Shown here: positions 806 to 52,000 of the stretch, piece by piece
How positions within the stretch are numbered: the stretch's first letter is position 1
How the letters are laid out: each line of letters starts with the position of its first letter
DNA from: Ginglymostoma cirratum
Taxonomy: Eukaryota
NCBI GenBank assembly: GCA_024137785.1
Contig: JAHRHZ010000026.1
Location: forward strand, 10,346,857-10,410,856
Length of the DNA stretch: 64,000 bases
Reading direction: 5' to 3'
Made by a program: the position numbers and the translations under genes
The notes under the pieces: model-generated
What the model was told of the DNA's origin: nothing
The model's input: only the letters and a program-made list of their open reading frames with translations
Database searches by the model: none

Positions 806-1824
806 ACAGAAGAGCAGTTGGACAGACAAAGGAGATGATAACGATCTGGTTGGAGGGTGAGTAGCTGTTAATGAGGACTGTTAGTGGCTAACAATAGGTA
901 TTGTGTAATGGCTGGCTCTGTGATAACAAGACCACGTGCGTGGGGTAGGGGGCTAGGATATGGGAGAGTTGAGGCCCTGAAATAATTGAACTTGATATAC
1001 AGTCTGGAGGGCTGCAGGGTCCCCAAGCGGAAAATGAGCTGTTATTCGTCCAGTTTGTGTTGAGCTTCACTGCAACATTGCAGCAAAAGCCAGAGACAGA
1101 GATGTTGGCCAGGGAAACAGGGTGGTGTATTAAAGTGGCAGGCAACTGGAAACTCAGGGTCTTCTTTGTGAGCAGAACCTAGATGTTCTGCGAAGCGGTC
1201 ACCCAGTCTGTGCATTGTTAACCCAATGTAGAGGGAGACCATAGATGTTCACCCTCCTAGCCAGATTGTTATCAACTCCTTTGTCTGTCTAACTGCTGTT
1301 CTCTCTCTCTCTGGGTTCTATCCATTACCCCATTGTTTACTCTCTACCCCATCCCCTCCCTATTTTCTGCATATAAGCCAACGTTTTCCCAGCTACCATC
1401 AGTTCTGAGGAAGGGTCACCAGACCTGTAATGTTAACTCTGAGTTGTTTCTTCACAGATGCTGTCAGACCTGCTGAGCTTTTCCAGCAACTTCTGTTTTT
1501 GTTCCTGATTTACAGCATCCGCAGTTCTTTCAGTTTTTATTTAGTATTTAACTCACTGCCACATTTCCTCCGGGCATGCCCACTTTGAAGACGTTCTGCT
1601 CCTCTCTCAGACAGGATTTCCATTCCAATCTTTCTTCTTTTCCACCGAAATTAATTTCACTGTCACTCCTGGTGTTTGACCAAGTATTTGCTAAAACTTG
1701 TTTCCACAGCCATATCACATTCCTCAGTGACTGCCTCTGGCTCAAACTCACACTGTGTGGGTTCCAACTGAAGTTTCATCCCTCATTTTTGAATCCTCCC
1801 AGGATCACGTAACTCTGTGACATT

Positions 1825-1995
1825 GGAAAAATCCATCTGATTCACCAATGTCTGTCAGGGATGGAAACAGCCATCCCCTGGTCTGCACTACATATGACTG
1901 TAGACCAACAGCAATGTGGTTGACTGTTACCTACTCTGGGCAATAAATGCTGGCCTAGCCAGCAATGCTGTCATTCTGTGAATGAATTTTAAAAA
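1825..1995 (+). mobile_element. SacSINE1-like DeuSINE 3' fragment inserted in PLE
   Basis: catctgattcaccaatgtc...catatgactgtagaccaacagcaatgtggttgact...gggcaataaatgctggcctagccagc. Confidence 0.7.
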
Positions 1996-2987
1996 TTCCA
2001 GAGTTTAATCCCATTGCCTTTCCAAACTAGACAATTCTCAAGGACAGCTGCTCTTGCCGCATCTTGAGATCCAAACTCAGTGCCAAGCGGCATTACACGC
2101 ACACTCTTCCTTTCTCTCTAACAGCGTTGCAACACACTGGCTCAGGGCCGTACCACTCTGCAGTTCCACTTTATCCACCAGCTCATTCAGTGCGCTAACA
2201 AGAAACTTCTTTTCATTTCAGGCATCAAGGCCCACAAGATGCAACAATTCAGGGATACCCATGGCCCTCTGGAACCTTCCTCTCCTCCCCTTCCCTCCAA
2301 CTCCATCCCCTCCCACAAGCCACCTCCTGTCAGGTATTCACCATCCCTCCCAACTTTCCGCTCTCCAATGCTGAATGTTCTGTCGTCAGCAAAGGCCTCA
2401 GCTTTATTCCTCTGTGTCCCCACCTTAACAAATTTTGGGCACAACATGACGTCGAACTCTTCTTCCACTGTCTTTGCCTCTGTGCCCATTTCTTTGGACA
2501 AGAGTCCTCTACCCGTCCCAAAGACTCCTTTGCCTAGTTCCAACACTCTCCCTCCACCTGGACCCCTCCCTCTGGCCTTTTATCTGCACTCGATCTGTTC
2601 ATGTAGAACTGTCGACGCGATATTGGTCACCTCAATTTCTCTGCTCCCCTCCACCACCAAATCCAACCTACCTCCCTCCCAACTGACTGCATTCCGTGCG
2701 CTTAGATCTAACCCCGACTTTATTATTAAGCCTGCCAATAAGGATGGTGCTGTTGTAGTCTGGCTAACTGACCTCTACATTGCAGAGGCTCAACACCAGC
2801 TCTCAGATACCTCCTCCTATCTTCCCCTGGTCTATGACCCCACCGTGACACATCAGACCATTGTATCAACTACAGCAACTGATCTCATTTCATCTGGTGA
2901 TCTCCCCCAGCTGCCTCTAAACTGACAGTCCCCCAGCCCAACAGCTTGCTTCTACCTCCTCCCCAAAATCGACAAACAGGACTGTAT

Positions 2988-3453
2988 CAGAGATAAAAGG
3001 TACTGCAGATGCTGGAGAATCCGAGATAACAAGGTGTGGGGCTGGATGAACACAGCAAGCCAAGCAGCATCATAGGAGAGGAAAGCTTGACATTTCGGGC
3101 CTAAACCCTTCATCAGAAATGGGGGAGGGGAAGAGGGTTCTGAAATAAATAGGGAGAGAGGGGGAGGCAGATAGAGGAGAGGATAGGTGGAGAGGAGGCA
3201 GACAAGTCGAAGAGGCGGGGATGGAGCCAGTAAAGGTGAGTGGAGGTGGGGGGGTAGGGAGGAGATAGGTCAGTCCAGGGAGGACGGACAGGTCAAGGGG
3301 GCGGGATGATGTTAGTAGATAGGAGATGGGGGTGGGGCTTGAGGTGGGAGGAGGGGATAGGTGAGAGAAAGGACAGGTTAGGGAGGCGGAGATGAGCTGG
3401 GCTGGTTTTGGGATGCGGTTGGGGGAGGGGAGATTTTGAAGCTTGTGAAATGC
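2988..3453 (-). mobile_element. younger PLE 3'-end fragment inserted antisense in the older PLE RT; hammerhead motif at 3089-3116
   Basis: shares its terminal ~130 bp with the 48128 and 48556 copies; G-rich tail; interrupts the host at KIDKQDC|RLIVSAC. Confidence 0.8.
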
Positions 3454-5496
3454 AGGCAGACTCATTGTTTCAGCCTGCTCCTGCCCCACAGAACTAATCT
3501 CTTCCTACCTTGACTCAGTCTTCTCTTCCCTAATCCACCTCCGGCCCACATACATCCGTGACTCCTCTCATGCTTTACGCCGGTTTCAAAGTTTCCAATT
3601 TGCAGGGTCCAGCCACCTCCCCTTTACCATGGATTTGGAATCCCTTTATACATCCAAGTATCACCAGGATGGTCTTAGGGCTCTCCACTTCTTCCTGGAG
3701 CAAAGACCTGAACTGACCCACCACCACCCTCCCAAACTTGGCCGAGCTCGTCCTCACCCTGAATAACTTCTCTTTAAAATCCTCTCCTTTTCTTCAGGTC
3801 AGAGGGGTGGCCATGGGTACCCACGGGTACCCACATGGGCCTCAGTTATGCCTGTCTCTTCATGGGGTACATGGAACATTCCTTGTTTCAATCCTATTCT
3901 AGCCCCGACCCTCAACTCTTTCTCCTATATATCAATGATACTGCTTCCCTCTCTCATCCGGAATTGGAAAAGTTCATTAATTTCGCTTCCAATGTCCACC
4001 CTGCCCTCACTTTCACCTGGGCTATCTCTGACTCCTCCCTCCCTTCCTCGACATCTGTTTCCATTTCTGGGGATAGACTGGCCACTACTATGCACTATAA
4101 ACCCACTGACTCCTACAGCTACCCAGACAATACATCCTCACACCCTGCTTCCTGTAAAGACTCCTTACCATTCTCTCCGTTCCTCCATCTCCAGCGCATG
4201 TGTTCAGATGAGGCCAAACTTCAACAAGGGAGCCAACAAAATGTCCACCTTCTTTCTCAATCGAGGATTGCCCAAAACCATTGTCAACAGGGCCCTCACC
4301 CGGGTCTGACGCATCTCCCGCACTTCCACCCTCACACCCTCTCTTCCTTCCAGCAACAGCAATAGAGATCCCCTTGTCCTTACCTACATCCCACCAGCAT
4401 CCACATCCAGAAGATCATCAGATGCCATTTCCACCACCTCCAGCAAGATGCCACTACCAGACACATATTCCCCTCCACTGGGAGTGTTCCCTCTGGGACA
4501 CCCTGGTCCACTCTTCCTTCATTCCCAACACAGCCCCATAGCACCTTCCCCTGCAACCATTGAAGGTGCAACATCTGTCCATTTACCTCCACTTCCCAGA
4601 ATCTAGTCTATTGCATTCGCTGCTCACAATGTGGTCTCCTCTGCAGTGGGGAAATGAAGTGTAGACCAGGTGATTGCTTCACAGAACATTCAAGTTCTGC
4701 TTGCAAAAAACAGCCTGGGCTTTCAGCTGCCTGCCACTTGAACACACCACCCTGTTCTCTGGCCAACATCTCCATCTCAGGCTTACTGCAGTGTTCCAGG
4801 GAGGCTCAATGCAAGCTGGAAGAACATCTCATTTTCTGCCTGGAGACCCTGCAGCCCTCCGGACTCAATAGAGTTCAATAAGTTTAGGGCCTCAATTCTC
4901 CCATGACCTAGCCCCCTAACCCACACAATAGGCCTTGTTATCATCTCGATAGTGTATAATGGCAGGTTATTGTTAGTCACTGACAGTCCCCATTAACAAC
5001 TATTCATGCTCCTAGCCAGATTGTTATCAACTCCTTTGTTCAACTGCTCTTCTCTCTCTCTCTCTTTGGGCTCTATCCTTTATCCTATTGTTTACTCCCT
5101 ATCCAATTCCCCTCCCTATTTTCTGCATATAAACAAACATTTTCCCCAGCTACCATCAGTTCTGAGGAAGGGGCACCAGATTCAAACGTTAACTCTATTT
5201 TTTCCTTCACAGATGCTGCTGAACTTTTCCAGATCTACAGCATCCGCAGTTCTTTCTGTTATGTCTATAAGTAAATCTAGTTTCCCTTAAGATAGTAAAG
5301 CAGGAGTGAAAGAGCTTAACAACATTCAAAACCGTTGTGTAATTCCTATTCCATGTTTTCTCTTAACTAGGAAGAATGAGCCAACAAGTGATCCACTGTT
5401 GCATAAATGATCATAAAATATATAACAACTCAAAGAAACCACCAGAGTGATCATTTGCCTGACTAACTGCTATTCAGGACAAAAGCAATTCACACC

Positions 5497-5680
5497 AGAG
5501 ATAACGAGGTGTAGAGCTGGATAAACACAGCAGGCCAAGCAGCATCAGAGGAGCAGGAAGGCAGGAAGGCCTAGACCCTTTAAACGTCAGCCTTCCTGCT
5601 CCTCAGATGCTGCTGTGTTCATCCAGCTCTACACCTTGTTATCTCAGATTCTCCAGCATGTGCAGTTCCTACTATCTCTG
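5497..5680. mobile_element. palindromic PLE pseudo-LTR fragment
   Basis: gataacgaggtgtagagctggataaacacagca ... gctgtgttcatccagctctacaccttgttatc inverted arms. Confidence 0.75.
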
Positions 5681-6515
5681 AAGCAGTTTATTTCAGTAAC
5701 AAAAAAAACTACTTATTGTAACACATTTGAATTTACCAGAACTAGTGAAAAGAAAGAAAAACAGAAATTGCTGGAAAATCTCGGCATGTCTAGCAGCATC
5801 TGTGGACAGAATCTCCACATCATAAATAAAGACAAAAACAAATAATTTAACACATACACTACGGATGGAAAAAAATAAAGACAAGGAAAACAAAATTACA
5901 AAGATGAAAAATCATTTTTCTCTTAGTCTTTTTGATTTTTGTAACAGTAATATGCTGATATCTGTAGCGTTACGGTCATTCTTTGATTCAATGGTTGATT
6001 TGGTGAACTTCAGTATTTTCTTCTATGATTATGAAATATTTAGTTCAGGCTTTCTCTCCAATGCAGAAATACAGGGGAGGGGGAGAAAGAAACAGAGTGG
6101 GGTTGGGGGGGGGGGGGGAGGTGGGGTTGTGAGAAAGAAACTGTGTCAGAGAGTTAGAGAATGATGCTTTCTATTTGCACGTACAAGATGTTTTTCGCTG
6201 GTCTTGCTGTTCTTGACATTTCCAGCTTTTAAATACTTTTTGACTCAACCAGAGCGCGATTGCCAGGCAGAATTTTTTTTAAATTGAAGAGTTATTTGTG
6301 CCACTAAGTCTCAAATTCTCTCTCTTACTTTTTCCAAGGAACATCATTGTATTATACAGCTTAATGTACGACAATAGTCCAACTTCCAATTTGTTTGAAT
6401 GTTCCAAAAAAGGTCTTTATACACATTTTAACTGTAGTGTAAGCAGTCTTTAATTCAGTTGCAATTTGTACCAGCTAACAAAAATATTTCCCTTTGCAGA
6501 ACTAACATTTTCCTG

Positions 6516-7669: not shown

Positions 7670-7845
7670 ACAGGAACTGCCGATGCTGGAGAATCTGAGA
7701 TAACACGGTGTAGGGCTGGATGAACACAGCAGACCAAGCAGCATCAGAGGACCTTTCTGAAGAAGGGTCTCCACCCAAAACTTCAGCTTTCCTGCTCCTC
7801 TGATGCTGGTGAGCCTGCTGCGTTCATCCAGCTCTACACTGTGTA
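7670..7845. mobile_element. palindromic PLE pseudo-LTR fragment
   Basis: inverted copies of the same ~100 bp unit with a degenerate hammerhead in the right arm. Confidence 0.7.
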
Positions 7846-19000: not shown

Positions 19001-22000
19001 TTTCAATTCTCTAACAATCAATTCCTTCCTTCTATCCTCCGCTTCCCTTCTCCCTTTTTTCTACTCCCTCCCATCTCTTATCCCTTTCTAAAGGCAGGTT
19101 TAGCAGCTAATCATGACAACCACTGAATATTCCCCATGCATGAACATCAGGTAATGCAGAACATTGGGCCGGTTGTTGAATATCCCATCAATGCTCTCAG
19201 TATTTAGTCATATGTGGAGATTGATTACAAGGGCAAGGTCTCAGGGAGCAATTGGTACCCACAGAACAGTAACCCACAAGGAAATAACAACCTTCAGAAG
19301 ATTCAAGACTGTAATGGGGGTGGAGGAATGAGGAGAAGAGGGCAGGAACTATGACGTACTGACTGATCAGATCAGAAAGAGACTGCACTCTCTGCAGGAA
19401 AAGTCCATTGCATTGGATTCCACACTTAAGTCAGGCATTACCTAGTCCTACAAGTCATTGCCCCACAGCATCTTTTACATCCACTGGCAGGCTACTGCAT
19501 CACCTCTAGTATTCGTGGCCCTTTTACTCATTCAGCTTACTTTGAAACAATGTTGAATGTTTTCTTTGCCTATTTTCTACTCATTTCAAATCTGACAGTA
19601 CTTACAAGGTAGGATTTGGATCGAGGAGTGCCAGTTATTTCTGGAGAATCATCACATTCTTCAGTCTCTGTCTCACTCCAGCAGTCTGCAGTGAGACAGG
19701 TAATCAGTTTTAACAAAAGCAAAATCAAACACAACAACATGTCATTTTTTTTAAATACAAGCTTGGGAGTACAGTAGAGCTATACTCAACATAGATGGTA
19801 CTACATCCCCCCCATTTGGCAGGAATATGTATTACAACAAAAAAAATACATTTTATCCCCAGACCCCAGGAGAACATTTAAAGTTTTGGCAAAGATCTGT
19901 AGCTCAGGTTGTGGGTGAGGTTGTTGATTTCATCGCTGAACTGGCTTGTTCTTGTTCAGACGTTTCGTCACCATGCTAGGTGAAATTATCAATGGAGCCT
20001 CCGCTGAAGTGATGTTATTCTACTCCACTTGGAATTTATACTGTCTGGTCCGTTATGGTGAGTTGTGTTATTTGCGGTTTTGATCTGTATGGGGTCCAAT
20101 TCTATATGTTTGTTGATTGCATTACGGGTGGAGAACCATGCCTCTAGGAATTCCTGTGCGTGTCTACGTTTGACTTGGGCTACTATGGTTACCTTGTCCC
20201 AGTTAGACTGTGTACCGATATTAAGGAGAGTTCGTTGTGCCGTCTTGCTGTTAGTCGATGTTCATGTATTCTGATGGCTAGTTTCCTTCCTGTCTGTCTG
20301 ATGAAATGTTTGTGGCAGTCATTGCATGGTAATCGGACAGACAGGAAGGAAACTAGCCATCAGAATACATGAACATCGACTAACAGCAAGACGGCACGAC
20401 AAACTCTACTTAATATCAGAACACTCAGATAATGAAGTCCACCAGTTTAACTGGGACAAGGTAACCATAGTAGCCCAAGCCAAACGTAGGCACGCACGGG
20501 AATTCCTAGAGGCGTGGTTCTCCACCTGTAATGCAATCAGCTAACAGGTAGAATTGGACCCCATATTCAAACCCCTTACAGATCAAAACCGGAAATGACA
20601 CTACTCACCATAACGGACCAAACAGTATAAATTCCAAGCGGAGTAGAATAACATCACTTAGTCGGAGGCTCCACTGATGATGTCACCTTGCATGGTGATG
20701 AAACAACTGAACAAGAACAAGCCAGCTCGGCGAGCAAGTCAACAATCTCACCTATGAGAACATTAATAATCCTAATCCAACCTTACCCAAGATAAAATAA
20801 AGATTGATTCCACTATTGCTAGTGGGACTCCAGTGGCAGAGTGTATTCAATAAGGAGATGGCCAGATAGATTAGGAAATTCCCAGGTTTGACCAGCAAAT
20901 GCTGAATTAATTGATCCTAGCTAGGGAAGTGTTTGGCTGCTAAATCTCACAAAAGGCAAGATTTGTAATAACTGTTCCAAATCCAATCAGCACCCAAAAT
21001 TTACACTGTTGGCAATGGATAATGGTCACATTGGTGAGGTACTAGAGAAAGTATCCACAACATATGGAATCTATATTCCAATGAAAGTCAGGACATCAGC
21101 AAAAGGTCAGGTATTGTGAGTGGGGAGGGTGGAGAGTTAAATACAGAAGATACATTCAATGAAAACAATTATCTTGATTTTGGAGAACAAGACATCTGCA
21201 GGTCTGCACCTGATCTGTGATGCCACACTGTATGAATAAGTATGTCTGGAAAAGATAGTCAGTTTTAGATTGGTTAACGGGTAGCAATCAGATTTCTGGA
21301 TTACAAAATCATGGGCTGAAGCTCCACTTCAGAACTTTATGTATGCTGGCACTTCAGTGAACTCTAAGAATCTGAGAGCCTATGCTCCACGTTTCAGAAT
21401 CAAGTACAGCAAAGTATTTATTCAAAGATGTATTTATTTATCATATTGGTAATGGCACACTTTGAATGCCTGTAATTGCACTGGTTCATTATCACTCTGC
21501 ACATGTACTACAATGAATGCAGTATGTTATCAATTATAAATTCAAAGAGGTTGCTTTTCCCAGGGAACCAATACCTGTGAATCAGTATAGGATTATGCAA
21601 CAATTGCTGGGCTCCAGTTCCTGCTATATTCAACACACACATTTTATTGATTCAGAGTTCGGCGGGAACTCTGGAAGTTTTTCTGCCTCGAGCTTCTTAC
21701 CTTCCTCTTTGTTTTCAGAGGGTTTCTCAGTTTTGTACTTTTGAATGGCACTGATGAGGCTGTTAATCCACCTACATATTAAGAACAGAGTTAGGAGCAG
21801 AGACACCACAGACTGCACTGAGCAAAAAAAAGCAGAGCAAGGGATGTGTCATCGCTGAAATATGGAGTGTTAGCACTGACATGAGGTATTGTTTCCTAGG
21901 ATACAGGGCTGCAAGAAGCCATCTCCAAACACACATCAAGGGCAAAAACTCTAGGCTGCTTTATTATATTCCAGGAGATAGAATAAGCATTTGTCAATCC

Positions 22001-43000: not shown

Positions 43001-46000
43001 TTTCATATGCATATGGACGGTTTGAACAAGACAGCTACCATGCCAAAAAAAAATCTGAGATAGTGTTTCTTCTTTGGGAACAATTGAGAAATTGTCGTCA
43101 AAATGCTCTCAAAACTGCACTTGTAAGGTTACAATTCAGGTTTTTAAATTCAAATCATATGCGTAACCACAAACTTAACGAATGGTAACCTAGTGCAGTA
43201 ACATTGGAAAAAACATAAAATGGGTTTATCAAAAATAAACATTTTTAAGAAGTAAGTTACGTTTCATATGCAAGATCATGTTTTCTCCAAACCTATAGTC
43301 ACAGGAGTACGTTATTATAACCAGCTAATATTAGCCATCACATGTGCAGTAAATCAGCACCTAATACAAATCATGCTGATGAGCAAAACAGAATGGAGTA
43401 CGTATACAATCAGCTGGTCATTGGAAACATTTGAAAACTGCCTCCCACACACAGAGAGAAAGCGAAGTGCGAGAGCTTGAGACAGAGAGAGAGAGAGAGA
43501 GAAGGGTGAGAGAGAGAGTGAGAGAGGTGAGAGAGAGAGAGAGAGAGGGAGAGACAGACAGAGAAAAAGAGAATGCAATGTATACCTCCTTACCCTCTGT
43601 GTTGGACTGTTGTACTGGATGCATTTGATCACTTTCTCCATCAGACTCGGATGCAATTTCAGAGTGGGATTCAGATGGCAATGGCTTATCTTTGTCCTCA
43701 CAGCTTGCACTAGTTTCAAAGGTGTTGTAGTCAGGTCGTGTACCCTGTTGGATTCCCACCCTCTCTCTCTGAGAGAACCTGAATTTTTAAAAGATGAAAG
43801 TCTTTGGAACTTGTGGTTTTAATTTGGCAGAATTGTGTGAGCACTGTTCTCCACAGTTTCGTTTTTAAGTATCAAGAAACATATCAAAACAACTAAGCAG
43901 AGATAAATGGGCAAAACATCCTCTGATGATCTTGGGGTCATACTCACCGTGAGAACAGCGATAGCTGGGCCAAATTACAGAATCCATTACATGCAACCAA
44001 ACAATGAAACAGAGCACTGTAAACAAAACCTGAGGGATTTGAAAAGCCTCCAACTATACTATTTACTGAACTGGAAGGATATCCTTCACCTGGGCATTTT
44101 ATTTATTATGCATTCATGGGATTTGGGTGTCATTAGCTGTGCCAGTGTTCATTGTCCATCCCTTGTTGCTCTCAAGTGGGTGGCGGGGGGTGTAGCTGTA
44201 CAGAATTGCTGTAGATAGATCCCACAGTGCATTGGAAGGAAGGAAGTTTCAGGATTTTGAAACAGTGACACTGAAGGGAAAGCAATCTTTTTCCAAGCAA
44301 GGATAGTGAATAGCTTGGAGGGGAGCTTGCAGGTGGTGTGTTCCCGGGTATCAGGTATCAGGTATCTGCTACTGTTACCTTTCTCGGTGATAGTGGTTGT
44401 GGGTTTGGAAGATGCTGTCTGAGGAACCTTGATGAATTCCTGTAGACCTTCTTGTTACTGAGCATCAGTGATGGAGGGAGTGAATGTTGGTAGATGTGGT
44501 GCCAGTCAAGCAGCTGCTTCATCCTGGATGTTGTCAAGCTTCTGGAGTATTGTTGGACCTCCACTCACACAGGCAAGTGGGAAATAATCCATCACATCCT
44601 GACTTGCACCTTACAAATAGTGCAGAGGTATTGGAGAGTCAGCAGGATTCCTAGCCTCTGACCTGCTTATGTAGCCACATTAAGTATATGGTAGTTCAGT
44701 TCACTTTTTGGTCAATGAAAACCTTCAGGATGTTGATTATGGGGCAATCAACAATAGTAATGACATTAAATTAATACAAAGGGACCCTATGATCCAGAAC
44801 TAATGACTGGATAAGAATCATTACCACTTATTACTCACATTTTGCTGAAAGACACAATGTCACCTAACATCTTGCCTAAGGGTGACTCAAATGCTAGAGC
44901 AGCTAGACCATGAACATGGCACATATCTGCACTACTAATTCCGCACATGTGCACAAAGCTGATTTCAACTGTTGCTGTAGAAAGTTGGAAATGGGAGTCT
45001 TGTCCCTGCCCCCACAGATTAAGATAACTATTTTACTGGGACATTTTTGCTTGCTGTAACAAAGCTATGCTCCACAAGAACATTCTTTTGCCTTAATTTA
45101 CTGAGCAGCAAGCAGAAGGATCAGCAAAACTTCCCTGCTTAATATCTTGCAACAAAATAGGTTATGATCCAATTTCATCCAGTTGTGGAAGATATAAAAA
45201 GTGTTATATAAATTTTTTTGTGCCCTAGTTTCTCCCAATTCTCTTTAAGGCATTGATTCATTGCATGCGTATTCCATTTGACATTTCTCACAAGTATTTC
45301 ATCTCTCGCTCTTGACAAGGAAGATTGCTAGGTTAGTCAATTCAAGGAGCATCACAAATCACTGTGATTGCATAGTCATCCATGTCCAGACACATGCTCC
45401 AGAGATGTCACTGAACAGCCTCAGAAGCATGAATCCTGGTTGATTTTTGTATCTAAGCAAACCATTAACTACTGACAATAAATCAGGACCGACTTTGAAA
45501 TAAACCTGGGGCATTCGTTGTCGGTGTGGTTTAGTTGATAAACTTGACAAGCATTGTGCACTGAGGATTCATTACTTTTATCCATAACATAAATAATGGG
45601 ACTCACTGACTGCATAACCCAAGCAACAGTTGGTTCAGGAAAGGATCTTAACTTTATAGCACAGTTGGTTAGATGATTACAGTGCAAGACAGATTAATGT
45701 CAACAACACTGGGTTCAATTCGTTGATGGGCTGAAGCAGACACAGGGTCTGTCTCTGCACCCTGCTTATGCTGTTGTAGAAAATCACAGCACTTTACCAC
45801 ATTTTGACAAATAATTCCCAAGGACCTGCAACAAAGGGAGAGAATGCAAGAATTCCACATTCAATACATAATCCACATAAAAATAAACTTTTTTTCTAAC
45901 TATCATGGGAAAGCAGATAAGTTCAAATTTGGACTATGACCCATCATTTTTGTCTGTAGTCTAGATGAGTAAGAAAGGATATTCATTCAAGTAAAGCATG

Positions 46001-49000
46001 AAACTTAGAGAGAGGTCACGATCTGACTTCTACAAGGGAATTGCTGAAAGGTAGCTATATTGGATTTTAGATCCAGTTTTTCTTATCAAAGGCTCACTGT
46101 ATCTAGGGAAATGCTCATTACTATCTATCAGATCAAAGTTGTTTGAGTGGGAATTTCACCTAACTTTACTCTTTCAGAGTTAATAAATTAGGAATGTACA
46201 GGATTAGAAGGATCACTGGTGTTTACCAATCCAGCCTCAATTGAAAGATGGCTAATACTAATAAAGACAAAATTAATTAAACGTGTCAGTGAATTCAATA
46301 CTGAACTGAACAACATGAACAAGCCTGGGCCACAAACCAGCCTGATCATCCAAGAACTGAAATATGCACACTTTTGTAAGAACCAAGTCCAGAACAACTG
46401 TCCTGGAGAAGAAAGGAATTAAATTGGAACTAACTGGGCAGATCTCTCAGAGAGCACACTTGGGTCTAGCAATGCCGCTGCATCTTCTGACATGCTTCTC
46501 AGTACCTAGGAGAAAGACAGCAGATATTAGTTATACAAAACAGCACTTCAACTAAGTTCAGTCTCATACCAAATGTTCAAACACATTCCCTAGAGGAACA
46601 CTAGCATGAAAAAAAGTCTAGGGTAGTCATCTTAACTTTTGATGGTGTATAAAATGAGTGACAGAAATCAAAGGTTATGGAGATCAGGAAAAGTTTTAAT
46701 GGATTGCTGTGTTGTGTTGTATGTTTTAAAGTAAGTTCCAAAGTCAACCTTACCCCAAAGTATGAGACCATTTCTTCATGTCCCTAACATTCCAGAACTC
46801 CCAGTCTGGCATCAGTTACTTTTCTCATATCCCCAGAATCTGTACCTCAGCTTCCTGGTCAGCCAAAATCACGCACACAATTCTTATTCTGTGTAAAGGA
46901 GTTCCTTCAGACATCGGATTCAAGTACCTCATTTGTTTGCTATCTTTGCTGTCTGGGCATTGCATTATACAGACCCCAGGACTTCCTCCGTATAGTACTT
47001 ACCTTTTAAAATACTTCCAAAGAAGATGCAGTAGTGCTGGAGGTAGTTTGTTATCATGGATAAAGGACTAACTAACTCTTAGGATACAAAGTTGGGATAA
47101 GGGATTCTATGATAACGGAAGCATTTTCAGAATGGCAAATTAGTGGAATCCCACAAGGATTAGTGTTGGGACCACAATTATTTGCAATAAATGTTAATGA
47201 TTTGGATGAGGAAAGTGGGTGCACTGTAGGAGATGACTTAAAAATAAGTGGGAAGCAAGTGGTGCGGATGACAGGCAGGGTCTGCAGAGGGATATAGGCA
47301 GGTTAAGTGAGTGGACAAAAACTTATAAGATGGAATATAATGTTGGAAAATGTGAGGTTATGTACTTTGGCAGCAAGAATAGAACAGCCTGAATATTTAA
47401 ATGGAGAAAGACTGCACCAGGCTACAGCACAGAGGTAACAAGGTGTGGAGCTGGATGAACACAGCAGGCCAAGCAGCATCAGAGGAGCAGGAAGGCTGAT
47501 GTTTTGGGCCTAGATCCTTCTTCAGAAACTATCTCTCTACAGCACATAGGGATTTGGGAGTCTTGTGGATGATTCAGTTCAGGAGGTAATAGGAATGCAA
47601 ATGGCATGTTGGCCTTTAGTTCAAAGAGTATTAAGCATAAAAATAGGGAAGTCTCGCAGAAGACTACCAAAAACTAGACTACAGCTTGGATACTGAACAG
47701 TTTTGGTTCTCTTATTTAAGATTTACTGGCATTGGAGGAGGTCAGAGAAAGTTCACTAGGTTGTCCCTGGTTGCAGAGGTGTGGCCTTATGAGGAAAGGG
47801 TGACTAGGTCAGGCCAAAACTCATTGGAGTTTAGAAGAATGAGCAGAGACCTCACTGAAATACACAAGATTCTTAAGGCACTTCATAGAGTAGATGCAAG
47901 GACAGTTTAGAACCAGAGGGATTAATCTAAGAGTAAAGGGTTGCCCTGTTAGGACATGGATGAGAGGAGTTTCTTCCCCCAGAGGATTGTGAATCTGTGG
48001 AATTCTTTATTGTTAAGGGCTGTCAATGCTGAGTGGTTAAGTATGTTCAAAGCTGGGATAAATAGATTTTAATCTGTAAGGGGATCAAGAGGTGTGGAGA
48101 TAAGGCAAAAATGGAGTTGAGGATTGTCAGAGATAAAAGGTACTGCAGATGCTGGAGAATCCGAGATGACAAGCATGGGGCTGGATGAACACAGCAGGTC
48201 AAGCAGCATCATAGGAGCAGGAAAACTTGACGTTTCGGGCCTAAACCCTTCATCAGAAAATGTTTCAGGAGTCGTAGGGAGAAGCGCTTCTGGAGGGTCT
48301 CAATGTTCTGAATGTAGATATTGTCACNNNNNNNNNNNNNNNNNNNNNNNNNNNNNNNNNNNNNNNNNNNNNNNNNNNNNNNNNNNNNNNNNNNNNNNNN
48401 NNNNNNNNNNNNNNNNNNNNNNNNNNNCAATTTTAACCCCACTGCGAAGCCTCTTCTAAGGATGCCTTCCCTGAGGTTTGTCCGGAGGGAGGAGGGTAAC
48501 TTCTTCAGGGTAGGCATCCTTAGAAGAGGCTTCGCAGTGGGGTTAAAATTGTATCTGAGATAAAAGGTACTGCAGATGCTGGAGAATCCGAGATAACAAG
48601 CATGGGGCTGGATGAACACAGCAGGTCAAGCAGCATCATAGGAGCAGGAAAACTTGACGTTTCGGGCCTAAACTCTTCATCAGAAAATCATTGAGGATTG
48701 TCAGATCAGCCATGATCTCATTGAATGGTGAAGCAGACTCAATGGACTGAATGGCCTGTTTCTACTCCTCCATCTTATGGTATTCACTATTACCTACTGG
48801 CCCCTTCCTGTATCATGTGTCAACCTGCACTTATTCTATTTCACTAATGAAAGGACATGTCAATACAATTTTTATTCATCTACCCATCTTAATCAATCAC
48901 CAGATATACTGCTTCGACAACAACAATCACCTGTGATGATGGATTGTTTACATTAACCATTCATGTACCAATTCAGTGGAAAGTCAAAGGGTCTTATGTT

Positions 49001-52000
49001 TCCCTTCCTAGGTCACACTCCCATGTTGTTTGGCACTCTCACCAGAGCTAGCTGAACTGAGTCAGGGAGCACAGACAACTGACAACTTGAAAAGAATCCC
49101 TCAGATAATAAATTAAAATCCACATGAGACTGTCAATGGTGTAAAAAACTGGCTTAAGCTAAACAATATTTTTCTTACCCCCAAGCATGGACAGGCATTG
49201 TTACTTGCTGGTGCAAGTATTTTATTTCAAAAAATATACCTCATTCAAAAAATATGTATAGATTTGTACAGTAGCATATCAAGGAAACAAACACTGGAGT
49301 TTGACTATCCAAACAAAACAAAGGCATCTCTTACTTGAACAAGACTATATTTATATGCATTTGAGGCACTGGGAGGGTCCGATAACTGAACAAATCCCAA
49401 AGTCATTGGTTACTCTGTTAGGTCCTCAAATAATTCAAAGTAGATTGTTGAGGCAAAATGTTCCCTTTCAAAAATCCATGCAAGCTATTCATTACATTTC
49501 TCATTTGTAGATGTTATTTGGTTCTCTCCTAAAAGTAAGGATTCTTGATGTTATAGTGACTGACTGTAAGTCCCGCAATATGTTATGTTTTTCTCTCTTA
49601 ATTACAAAAAATTACGTGTAAACATCCACCTGTCCTTTAACATGGTATCTTTTTGAACAATTTATCAAATACGACAGTAATATTTCAGTTATCTCTTCTT
49701 TGGAATCTTTCAAAATACAAGAATACAGTGCATCCTATTTATTTTTGGTGGGATGAGGGAAGGTCTGGTTAGCTCAGTTGGCTGGATGGCTGGTTTTGTG
49801 ATGCAGAGTGACACCCACAATACAGCTTCATTTCCCACACTGGCTAGAGTTACCATGATGGAGTCTCCTTCTCAACCTCTCCTCTTGCCTGAGGCATGGT
49901 GATCTTCCAGTGTCTCTAATGAGACAGCAGCCCTATGGTCTGGTAAGACTATGGTGACTTTATCTTTAACATGCCTTTTACTTTCCAATTTTAAATGCAC
50001 TAATCTCATTAGTTACCTCATCATTCAATGTCATGTCTACATGTTCCATTTCCCTTCTAAATACCAAAGCAAAATAATTAAAGTTTTACCATCTCTTTGT
50101 CATTACTGTTTCATTATCTTCTACCCGTAAATATTTAGTGGTTCAATTCTCATTAGACTTTTGTTTTTATTGATATGCCTGCCAAAAGTTTTAAATGATT
50201 TGATCAGTTAGTTTCATAGTTCCGCTTTGCCTTCATAAATTGTCTTTTTGACTTTTGTCCTAATTTCTTTGTATACTTGTTTATCAGTAGGTATTTGGTA
50301 AGAGGTTGCCCTCACCTCTGTTAAGTGGGGTTGCTGCAGCTGTACACCATCAGAGAAACTGAACGATGGTGATATATCAAGGGGCACCTTTTTCATTATG
50401 AGAACTACTTGATTTGGATTCTCCCGCAGTTTGGCAACCAGGTTATGCAATGTCCATCCAACCTAATGGTGGTGAAAAAAAAACAGAAGGAAGAGTCTCC
50501 ATGTGAGAAATCCATCATTCCAAAGATTGTTAGAACAAAGTTTCTCTTTGAAGTCAGTCAACAAATAAATTAGGAGGCTTTAAGAACAACAAAGGATTTC
50601 AGCAGCTCTCTGTGTCATCACTGAGCAATAGACTGGTACATTTACGGTTTATAGAATCCCTACAGTGTGAAAGCAAACCTTTCAGCCCAACGAGTCCATA
50701 CCAAACCTCCAAAGAGCATCCCACCCAGACCCACTCCTCTACGCTATCCCTGTAACCTTACATTTCATATGGCTAATCTACACATCCCCGGATACTATGG
50801 GCAATTTAGCATGGCCAATCCACCTATCCTGCACATCTTTGGACTAATGGGAGGAAACCAGAGCACCCAGAGGAAACCCACACAGACATAGGGAGAATGT
50901 GCAAACTCCTCACAGTCACCCAAGGTTGGAATCAAACCTGGGTCCCTGACACTGGGAGGCAGCAGAGCTACCCACTGGGCTACCATGCTGCCCCAAGCAC
51001 TTATACTTAGATATCTTAGGGTGGTCTTAAGGTAAAGAGGTTGAGGTGCCCAGAAGATCCTAAATGTTAGCATGCAGCATTGTGAAACAACAACAATCAA
51101 ACCCATGCTCAAAAAAAGACAACAGCTGGCTGGGAACAGTTCCCCTGTCTCTTCCTTATGATGCGTGGGGATTGGTGAATAATAGCAGAAGGGAGTGAGA
51201 ATTAGTGTTGAAGCCTTTGAAAAAACATAACATGGGTTTGTAATAATGAAACCTGGACTCTGAGGGTTACATGACATGGTGAGACAACACTTTTTACAGG
51301 CAGCATACCTTAAAAGACATGCTCGTAATGTCAACGCTGCATTATGTGACCTGCGCATATAAAGATCTCATAGTCCATCTTGCCTCTGATCACTTGAAGA
51401 ATGAAATTGGAATATGGATACATGATTACCAGATCAGGCTGAATTTGTCAAACCTCCAAAGCGTTACATTGAAATTTGAAATTTTAGTCTTGTAAACTGT
51501 TCATATGATTATTGAATTGACAACATATGCTTATACACAACCACATAACCTGTTTGGGCTAAGATTTTATCTTGGGAAAAATGAAACGTGTTATGCTTCA
51601 CAATCAATATATCTTTAAGAGACTTGTTCATTATATCATCACTGCATATGACATGAGAGTATAAAGATCTCAGTCCACCTTAACTTGGATCACTTGTGTC
51701 TGCAGAAAGCAATATTTGTACATAATTGTTAGTCGTAACATATATTTGTTGGATTACTCAATGCCACAATATCCAGACCTAACTCCTCATGTTATGAGAG
51801 ATATTACCGCGTCAGCTAAAATAGTTTTAAGAGGTAAACTGACACTTTAAGAGATACGAGTAAAGGAGCTATGTAGAGTTAGATTGCAGACCACGTATAA
51901 TTTCACTGAAGATTGGAAATGATTTGAGAACTTTGAGAGCTTTCTTCTTGAGAGTTTACAATCACTGACAAATAAAATGATAATTAAGAATAAAGAAAGA

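Follow-up and report, generated by a model that had tools for sequence, protein, structure and literature searches.

Insertions of Penelope-like retroelements (PLEs) are described as typically partial tandems with adjacent inverted copies, which give rise to gaps in assemblies (PMC8557442); they have also been described with target-site duplications (TSDs) of 8-10 bp, with internally deleted copies and with self-priming (PMC3846280). The minimal hammerhead ribozymes of PLEs are reported to show no cleavage as monomers and low cleavage as dimers (PMC4209133), and the hammerhead of an anole PLE is protein-dependent and dispensable for insertion, with no reads ending at the cut site (PMC11167929). 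Retrozymes of PLE origin are already on record for one chondrichthyan and often lie within introns, as 42-44% of the non-LTR retrozymes of Xenopus do; 8 of 9 Xenopus retrozyme dimers were without cleavage in vitro (10.64898/2026.07.22.740005). A slow hammerhead within an intron is tolerated by splicing, whereas a fast HDV ribozyme is not (cited in PMC2995048).

Here we analyse a cassette with two hammerheads from the nurse shark Ginglymostoma cirratum, in a 64-kb stretch of DNA that is referred to as a whole as the window. A preliminary description had presented it as a retrozyme-like element in an intron of CNKSR1; its observations are confirmed, and its overall interpretation is partly supported. 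With a probability of roughly 0.7, the cassette is a one-off dead insertion of an abundant shark PLE family, namely a 5'-truncated partial tandem that is probably inert. Its parts, their homology, the TSD and a mismatch in stem II of one hammerhead are shown directly (Table 1).

Organisation of the insertion

The cassette is built on a direct repeat with a spacing of 427, which extends over 144 nt at 96% identity with repeats of ~133 bp each, in agreement with the two near-identical copies of ~130 bp noticed previously. Each copy is a pLTR, and the cores of the two (48132-48260 and 48559-48687) differ at 2 positions. Three variants common to both are absent from the other nine aligned copies of the family, and this, together with only two core differences, points to one template lineage. 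Variants private to the locus lie at 48174, 48175, 48199 and 48275. The outer 5' end of the cassette and its inner junction coincide to the base, lying 4-5 nt upstream of the core of the hammerhead, and the two additional nucleotides at the 5' junction are presumably untemplated. A TRF run on 47300-49500, a stretch that includes the 100 N of the assembly gap, returned 0 rows and hence no tandem array.

Table 1. Features of the cassette and of its surroundings, with positions in the window.
Feature	Position	Strand	Remarks
CNKSR1 exon downstream of insertion	46434..46505	-	P0002 residues 309-332, 92%
Third, older solo pLTR in same intron	47446..47528	-	Degenerate core, no match to core pattern
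Older repeat (LINE 3' end) split by insertion	47821..48763	+	From offsets to copy at 54.7-55.2 kb
TSD, left copy	48117..48131		15-nt direct repeat, identical to 48691-48705
3' pLTR copy	48127..48260	-	5'-truncated ~4-5 nt upstream of hammerhead core; ends at family's short 3' end
Downstream minimal hammerhead	48229..48256	-	Core intact, extra A after A9, 4-bp stem II, ACGU helix III and helix I of 3 bp; cleavage predicted after 48229
PLE ORF codons 77-98	48260..48327	-	Joined directly to 3' pLTR; 17/22 identical to P0122 residues 77-98, 16/21 to P0121
Assembly gap, 100 N	48328..48427		Only gap in window; for a colinear ORF, 175 nt required between 48467 and 48327
Fold-back arm	48428..48466	+	Inverted copy of leader and first codons; -89.1 kcal/mol, z -14.5
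PLE ORF codons 1-17	48467..48517	-	16/17 identical to P0121
5' pLTR and leader	48518..48688	-	5'-truncated at same point as 3' copy
Upstream minimal hammerhead	48656..48683	-	A.C mismatch in stem II at 48674; predicted damaged
Two extra nt at 5' junction	48689..48690	-	Absent at that place in other aligned copies
TSD, right copy	48691..48705		15-nt direct repeat, identical to 48117-48131
CNKSR1 exon upstream of insertion	50313..50462	-	P0002 residues 260-309, 94%

Like the partial tandems of endonuclease-bearing PLEs (PMC8557442, PMC3846280), the cassette combines hammerhead pLTRs in direct repeat, 5' truncation, an ORF start inside the 5' repeat, an adjacent inversion, a TSD and an assembly gap; unlike those partial tandems, it has no visible RT or EN, with codons 1-17 and 77-98 as its only coding remnants. 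Its TSD is 15 bp long as against 8-10 bp in the rotifer examples, and its inversion, on the 3' side of where the ORF begins, is of the tail-to-tail type, the rarer form in that account (PMC3846280).

Each repeat further contains a pyrimidine-rich stretch ending in AG (48148-48183 and 48575-48610, minus strand) that resembles a 3' splice site and lies sense in the CNKSR1 intron, and P0121, a gene model, seems to pass into pLTR sequence there (match at residues 155-163). By their appearance these stretches are putative cryptic acceptors.

Coding remnants and fold-back

The two interior pieces belong to the N-terminus of one ORF; they have a common orientation, follow each other as in the family ORF and are separated there by 175 nt. 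That the interior represents the 5' start of a PLE ORF, and that the left repeat joins it directly, had been recognised before; both peptides are present and match P0121 and P0122, and codons 77-98 adjoin the 3' pLTR at 48260. No RT or GIY-YIG is visible in the cassette, and the intact RT-EN ORF of an autonomous PLE is absent from the sequence outside the 100-N gap.

A search with P0121 yielded 100 relatives, among them P0162, P0213, P0215 and P0217 at E values of 4e-7 to 5.5e-4. When nine of the relatives were compared with Pfam, the four long ones (882-927 aa) all carried GIY-YIG and three of them also RVT_1, only some of these matches passing the Pfam cut-off, and no Pfam family was found in the five shorter shark gene models. 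Four decayed or N-terminal proteins likewise matched 0 families, and 0 of 3917 candidates passed as homologues of the decayed PLE ORF at 2122-2922. Neptune-type PLEs have a Zn-finger in the linker (PMC8557442), and a Cys-rich linker before GIY-YIG can be made out by eye in P0162, P0213 and P0215 and in a decayed element at 1576-4900, the cassette itself having no visible RT; by this likeness the ORF relatives are candidate members of a Neptune-like clade.

Beyond codon 17 the ORF start folds back on itself. An inverted repeat of 47 bp with one mismatch (48428-48474 and 48505-48551) lies directly at the gap edge; it had been missed in the preliminary description, as had the family copies in the window, at least 11 in number. 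A loose contig end in run X18 shows the family ORF continuing normally at 48467, unlike the fold-back of the cassette. A short inverted match of natural origin marks the start of the fold-back, as would be expected of self-priming, whether cellular or in a library, and the fold-back is either a self-priming product or a chimera of library or assembly; the assembly gap would be explained by either origin. The 427-nt spacing counts the arbitrary 100-N placeholder and 39 nt of fold-back, and the unit of ~427 nt proposed previously therefore owes its length to the placeholder. From cut to cut the unit measures 463 nt if the interior is a colinear ORF, a value that no longer applies if the fold-back is real, since a second inversion must then lie in the gap.

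Twin hammerheads

Minimal hammerhead cores are found on the minus strand at 48256-48229 and 48683-48656, exactly where they had been placed. With a relaxed core pattern the window gives 5 matches where 0.20 are expected, a number attained by 0 of 100 shuffles. Both cassette hammerheads have the conserved core, an extra A after A9, the ACGU palindrome and a helix I of 3 contiguous bp. With the minimal PLE hammerheads of PMC4209133 they share the conserved core, the unpaired nucleotide that separates 9 from 10.1, the G10.1-C11.1 pair, the palindromic 15.2-16.2, the lack of a loop 3 and the expected dependence on dimers, and their earlier designation as PLE-type minimal type I motifs with a palindromic helix III is thus matched by the sequence. 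The helices of the cassette are shorter than those described for Schistosoma, with 4 as against 7-8 bp in helix II and 3 as against 4-5 bp in helix I (PMC4209133), and one of the copies has a mismatch in stem II.

This mismatch had been recorded as one change in stem II of the upstream hammerhead; the change is present, but its effect was overlooked, in that the A.C mismatch abolishes the predicted stem II hairpin (-3.7 kcal/mol downstream versus 0, that is no fold, upstream). In context, the pairing probability of stem II is 0.02-0.15 downstream and ~0 upstream, and neither 56-nt hammerhead piece folds better than its shuffles. In a nearest-neighbour model the energy of the active dimer is -2.3 kcal/mol for two downstream copies versus +4.6 kcal/mol for the natural pair; these energies leave out tertiary contacts and proteins, and only the difference between the dimers is meaningful. 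Alternative folds lie far below, at -28.8 and -21.9 kcal/mol. A comparison of 46000-51000 with Rfam at E values up to 5 gave five matches, of which none was to a hammerhead family and none attained the gathering score; four miRNA matches were rejected as being the fold-back hairpin.

Any cleavage would come from the downstream hammerhead, slowly, as a dimer and probably only with PLE protein. A slow cut of this kind within the intron would be unlikely to disturb splicing.

Host intron and target site

The cassette is non-coding and lies between two CNKSR1 exons that tblastn places on the minus strand, the upstream one at 50462-50313 and the downstream one at 46505-46434; both hammerheads are therefore sense in the CNKSR1 pre-mRNA, as had been stated. 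At 27.3 kb, a PH-domain exon shows 100% identity to CNKSR1 records of carpet sharks. The upstream exon is missing from P0001, the record of a CNKSR1 isoform of a relative, and is included in P0002 and P0003; given its absence from P0001, it may be alternatively spliced. Elsewhere in CNKSR1 an intron contains an imperfect palindrome of ~840 bp (19914-20752) with a self-match of 82%.

A single 15-bp TSD bounds the cassette, as first described. The last 5 nt of its left copy (48127-48131) also fit the 3' tail of the element and so constitute a microhomology, and these 5 nt also stand at the end of the pLTR copy at 2987. The insertion has split an older repeat, which we take to be a LINE of CR1/L2 type. 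Relative to the copy of this LINE at 54.7-55.2 kb, the offset is 6961 on the left and 6387 on the right of the insertion, and the difference of 574 nt equals the insert plus one TSD, the paralogous LINE being colinear without the 574 nt; the LINE copies carry other indels too, for example an offset of 6940 further left. Because the flank offsets of the paralogous LINE differ by exactly the insert and one TSD, the TSD is real. Loose contig ends of the older LINE repeat occur before 48691. In the contigs compared, in which the locus is thinly covered, an orthologous empty allele was not seen in organism B.

Distribution of the repeat

By its sequence, the repeat is the hammerhead-bearing end (pLTR) of a highly abundant PLE family. 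Apart from the cassette, the window holds nine copies at 77-96% identity, a count that leaves out two weak matches at E 0.29. The closest (2987-3119, 93%) terminates a 3' fragment of a PLE. In a comparison with contigs of 4 of 24 runs (X1, X4, X5 and X18), the summed depth was ~1e6 on the repeat versus 2.5-12 on contigs of the unique flank, depth being no measure of copy number. In run X1 the flanks are matched identically over 151, 151 and 404 nt, and X1 is on that ground attributed to the same species; X4 comes from a relative. A literature search, which did not extend to subscription papers, Repbase or the supplementary tables of 10.64898/2026.07.22.740005, found no paper naming this shark PLE family; those tables, which deal with chondrichthyan families, may already list it.

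Several other arrangements were noticed in the window. A decayed PLE of nearly full length at 1576-4900 (plus strand) retains an ORF start, RT motifs, a Cys-rich linker and a GIY-YIG-like end with many frameshifts, and inserted into it in reverse is a piece at 2987-3500 (minus strand) that represents the 3' end of the cassette's own subfamily. Two head-to-head inverted pairs of pLTRs, at 5498-5690 and 7672-7844, have their joints within the hammerhead or close to it. Another family of hammerhead-like repeats has three related copies (520-704, 1248-1506 and 5003-5232), with a core match at 591-562.

Breakpoints at the ribozyme

Where copies of the family begin was judged by eye from the 11 aligned copies. 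Four start 3-5 nt upstream of the hammerhead core, and perhaps a fifth; three others start inside the ribozyme and one downstream, two extend further upstream, and none starts at the cut site. Among the contig joints listed, the edge at 48259-48261 is joined to 48494, 48528, 48469, 48603, 48130 and 48228, and loose ends pass into the normal PLE 3' region in 38 cases in X1 and 43 in X18. So far as the listed joints go, the 5' edge of the hammerhead is thus a recurrent stop-and-switch point with variable partners.

The particular junction of the cassette, between codon 98 and the hammerhead, looks rare in the contigs. The codon 77-98 piece is repeated sequence in all four runs, and around 48275 the contigs of three of them (X1, X4 and X18) end at most 15 letters away, which on our reading means that they stop at the junction. 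Nearly all contig depth at 48275 carries C where the window has T, and these observations suggest that neither the junction nor the T variant has been amplified. Two contigs of X5 align across the inner junction (48237-48327 and 48244-48323), with 6-8 other letters; on the side of the hammerhead they have 23 and 16 letters, both below the bar of 31 letters that was applied to bridging, and they could be other copies with the same junction or alignments that run on from copies with an intact ORF. At that bar the inner junction is unbridged in all 32 pieces listed. None of these pieces spans the point of the fold-back, the gap or either boundary of the insertion, which, the locus being thinly covered, is not evidence of absence. 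One of the 100 related proteins, the whale-shark gene model P0126, leaves the ORF after the same residue 98 and enters PLE 3' sequence ~180 nt upstream of the hammerhead, a break that may arise through a predicted splice.

Origin of the cassette

What is found at the locus corresponds to a PLE partial tandem. The pLTR with its minimal type I hammerhead is the same repeat that ends the PLE 3' piece at 2987-3500, the ORF pieces are homologous to proteins with RT and GIY-YIG, the 5' truncation is accompanied by direct and/or inverted partial copies (the inverted arm being biological or an artefact), and the TSD lies at a site that is empty in the paralogous LINE copy. Further support comes from the many different partners at the hammerhead edge, a known pattern of PLEs (PMC8557442, PMC3846280). 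From this arrangement we infer an order of steps, and likewise the inertness of the copy. A PLE protein acting in trans would have nicked the old LINE remnant in the CNKSR1 intron at points 15 nt apart, and the 5 nt of microhomology with the short 3' end of the family would have served for priming. Reverse transcription would then have proceeded over ~130 nt up to the 5' edge of the hammerhead, where the template would have been switched to a second stretch of the same lineage, at codon 98 of the ORF, and copying through the ORF start and leader would have led to a second stop at the hammerhead 5' edge. A self-primed inversion after codon 17 would perhaps have been part of the same event, unless the fold-back is a chimera of library or assembly. 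Read in this way, the locus is a further decayed insertion in a genome crowded with PLEs, and a small example of how PLE reverse transcription stops or switches at the hammerhead 5' edge and not at the cut site.

The interpretation given in the preliminary description, by which the cassette would be a low-copy non-autonomous retrozyme-like derivative of a PLE, appears unlikely. It would have a unit of ~460 nt, from the hammerhead to codon 98, whose RNA was cleaved and circularised and which was inserted as 1.3 units, the fold-back being an artefact and the stem II change having arisen after insertion. Like the metazoan non-LTR retrozymes (PMC7229834; 10.64898/2026.07.22.740005), the cassette is non-coding and intronic, has two type I hammerheads in direct repeat and a long TSD, and derives from a PLE; non-LTR retrozymes have been reported as PLE derivatives and were found in one chondrichthyan, with a mean consensus of 363 bp (10.64898/2026.07.22.740005), and a colinear unit of 463 nt is near the 150-450 bp range of animal retrozymes (PMC7229834). 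Two X5 contigs that may cross the junction, and the break of P0126 at the same residue, would fit such a unit as well. Unlike those retrozymes, however, the cassette amounts to 1.3 units without a tandem array, its interior is a PLE ORF with a fold-back, and its hammerheads are minimal rather than canonical, one of them being damaged. The complete, foldable hammerhead that each metazoan unit contains is lacking upstream, where the A.C mismatch breaks stem II, and in both hammerheads helix I has 3 contiguous bp in place of the canonical ~6 (PMC4209133). Nor does the cassette resemble a plant LTR retrozyme, with its type III hammerhead, 4-bp TSD, PBS and PPT, since it has a type I minimal core and a 15-bp TSD. 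The joining of the hammerhead edge to many points also speaks against a fixed unit, as does the junction itself, at which contigs stop in three of the four runs and which is unbridged at the bar among the 32 pieces listed. A circular template would not predict that the outer end coincides with the inner junction, unless RT stalls there anyway, and the failure of nearly all Xenopus dimers to cleave in vitro likewise speaks against this reading. It is similarly doubtful that codon 98 marks a recurrent break or RT start of a carpet-shark subfamily, in which a retrozyme at birth would keep the ORF-start RNA that is bound by the PLE protein and would be freed from the host intron as a circle of ~460 nt when that protein aids the dimer. 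Were the retrozyme-like reading true, the locus would stand as a direct structural intermediate in the origin of animal retrozymes from the ends of PLEs that has been proposed (10.64898/2026.07.22.740005), and would offer a shark substrate on which hammerhead cleavage aided by protein could be tested.

Two further explanations concern the gap. A longer tandem or inverted PLE insertion, with extra inverted pLTRs and up to a near-full RT-EN ORF, might be hidden in it, the visible parts forming an outer shell; the 100 N stand for an arbitrary length, assemblies of PLE insertions are broken by long palindromes of the kind found beside the gap (PMC8557442), the window has further inverted pLTR pairs (5498-5645 and 7703-7844), and the gap must contain a second inversion if the fold-back is real. 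Yet the ORF pieces on either side of the gap keep the orientation, order and 175-nt distance of the family ORF, and the 3' pLTR is joined to codon 98 and not to the EN end, so that an RT-EN region would require a second passage through the ORF. The short complex version of this explanation is already part of the partial-tandem reading, and the long insert we regard as quite improbable. That the twin repeat is a false duplication or a mis-join is very improbable: although the only gap in 64 kb falls inside the element, beside a fold-back of the type given by chimeric reads, and no contig among those listed bridges either insertion boundary (cover of the locus being thin), the 15-nt TSD stands on both outer sides of an interrupted LINE that is exactly colinear, and the two repeats differ at two positions and have different inner neighbours.

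Apart from the cassette, joints seen in single contigs imply head-to-tail units elsewhere, namely 48260 to 48130 (X1), 48259 to 48494 and 48259 to 48528 (both X4), and 48261 to 48469 (X1). In the same order, the units would be ~154, 195, 161 and 223 nt long and the contig depths are 329, 181, 45 and 61, as against 2.5-12 for unique flank, with depth again not standing for copy number. These short joints may represent short hammerhead tandem units, which would make better retrozyme candidates than the present locus.
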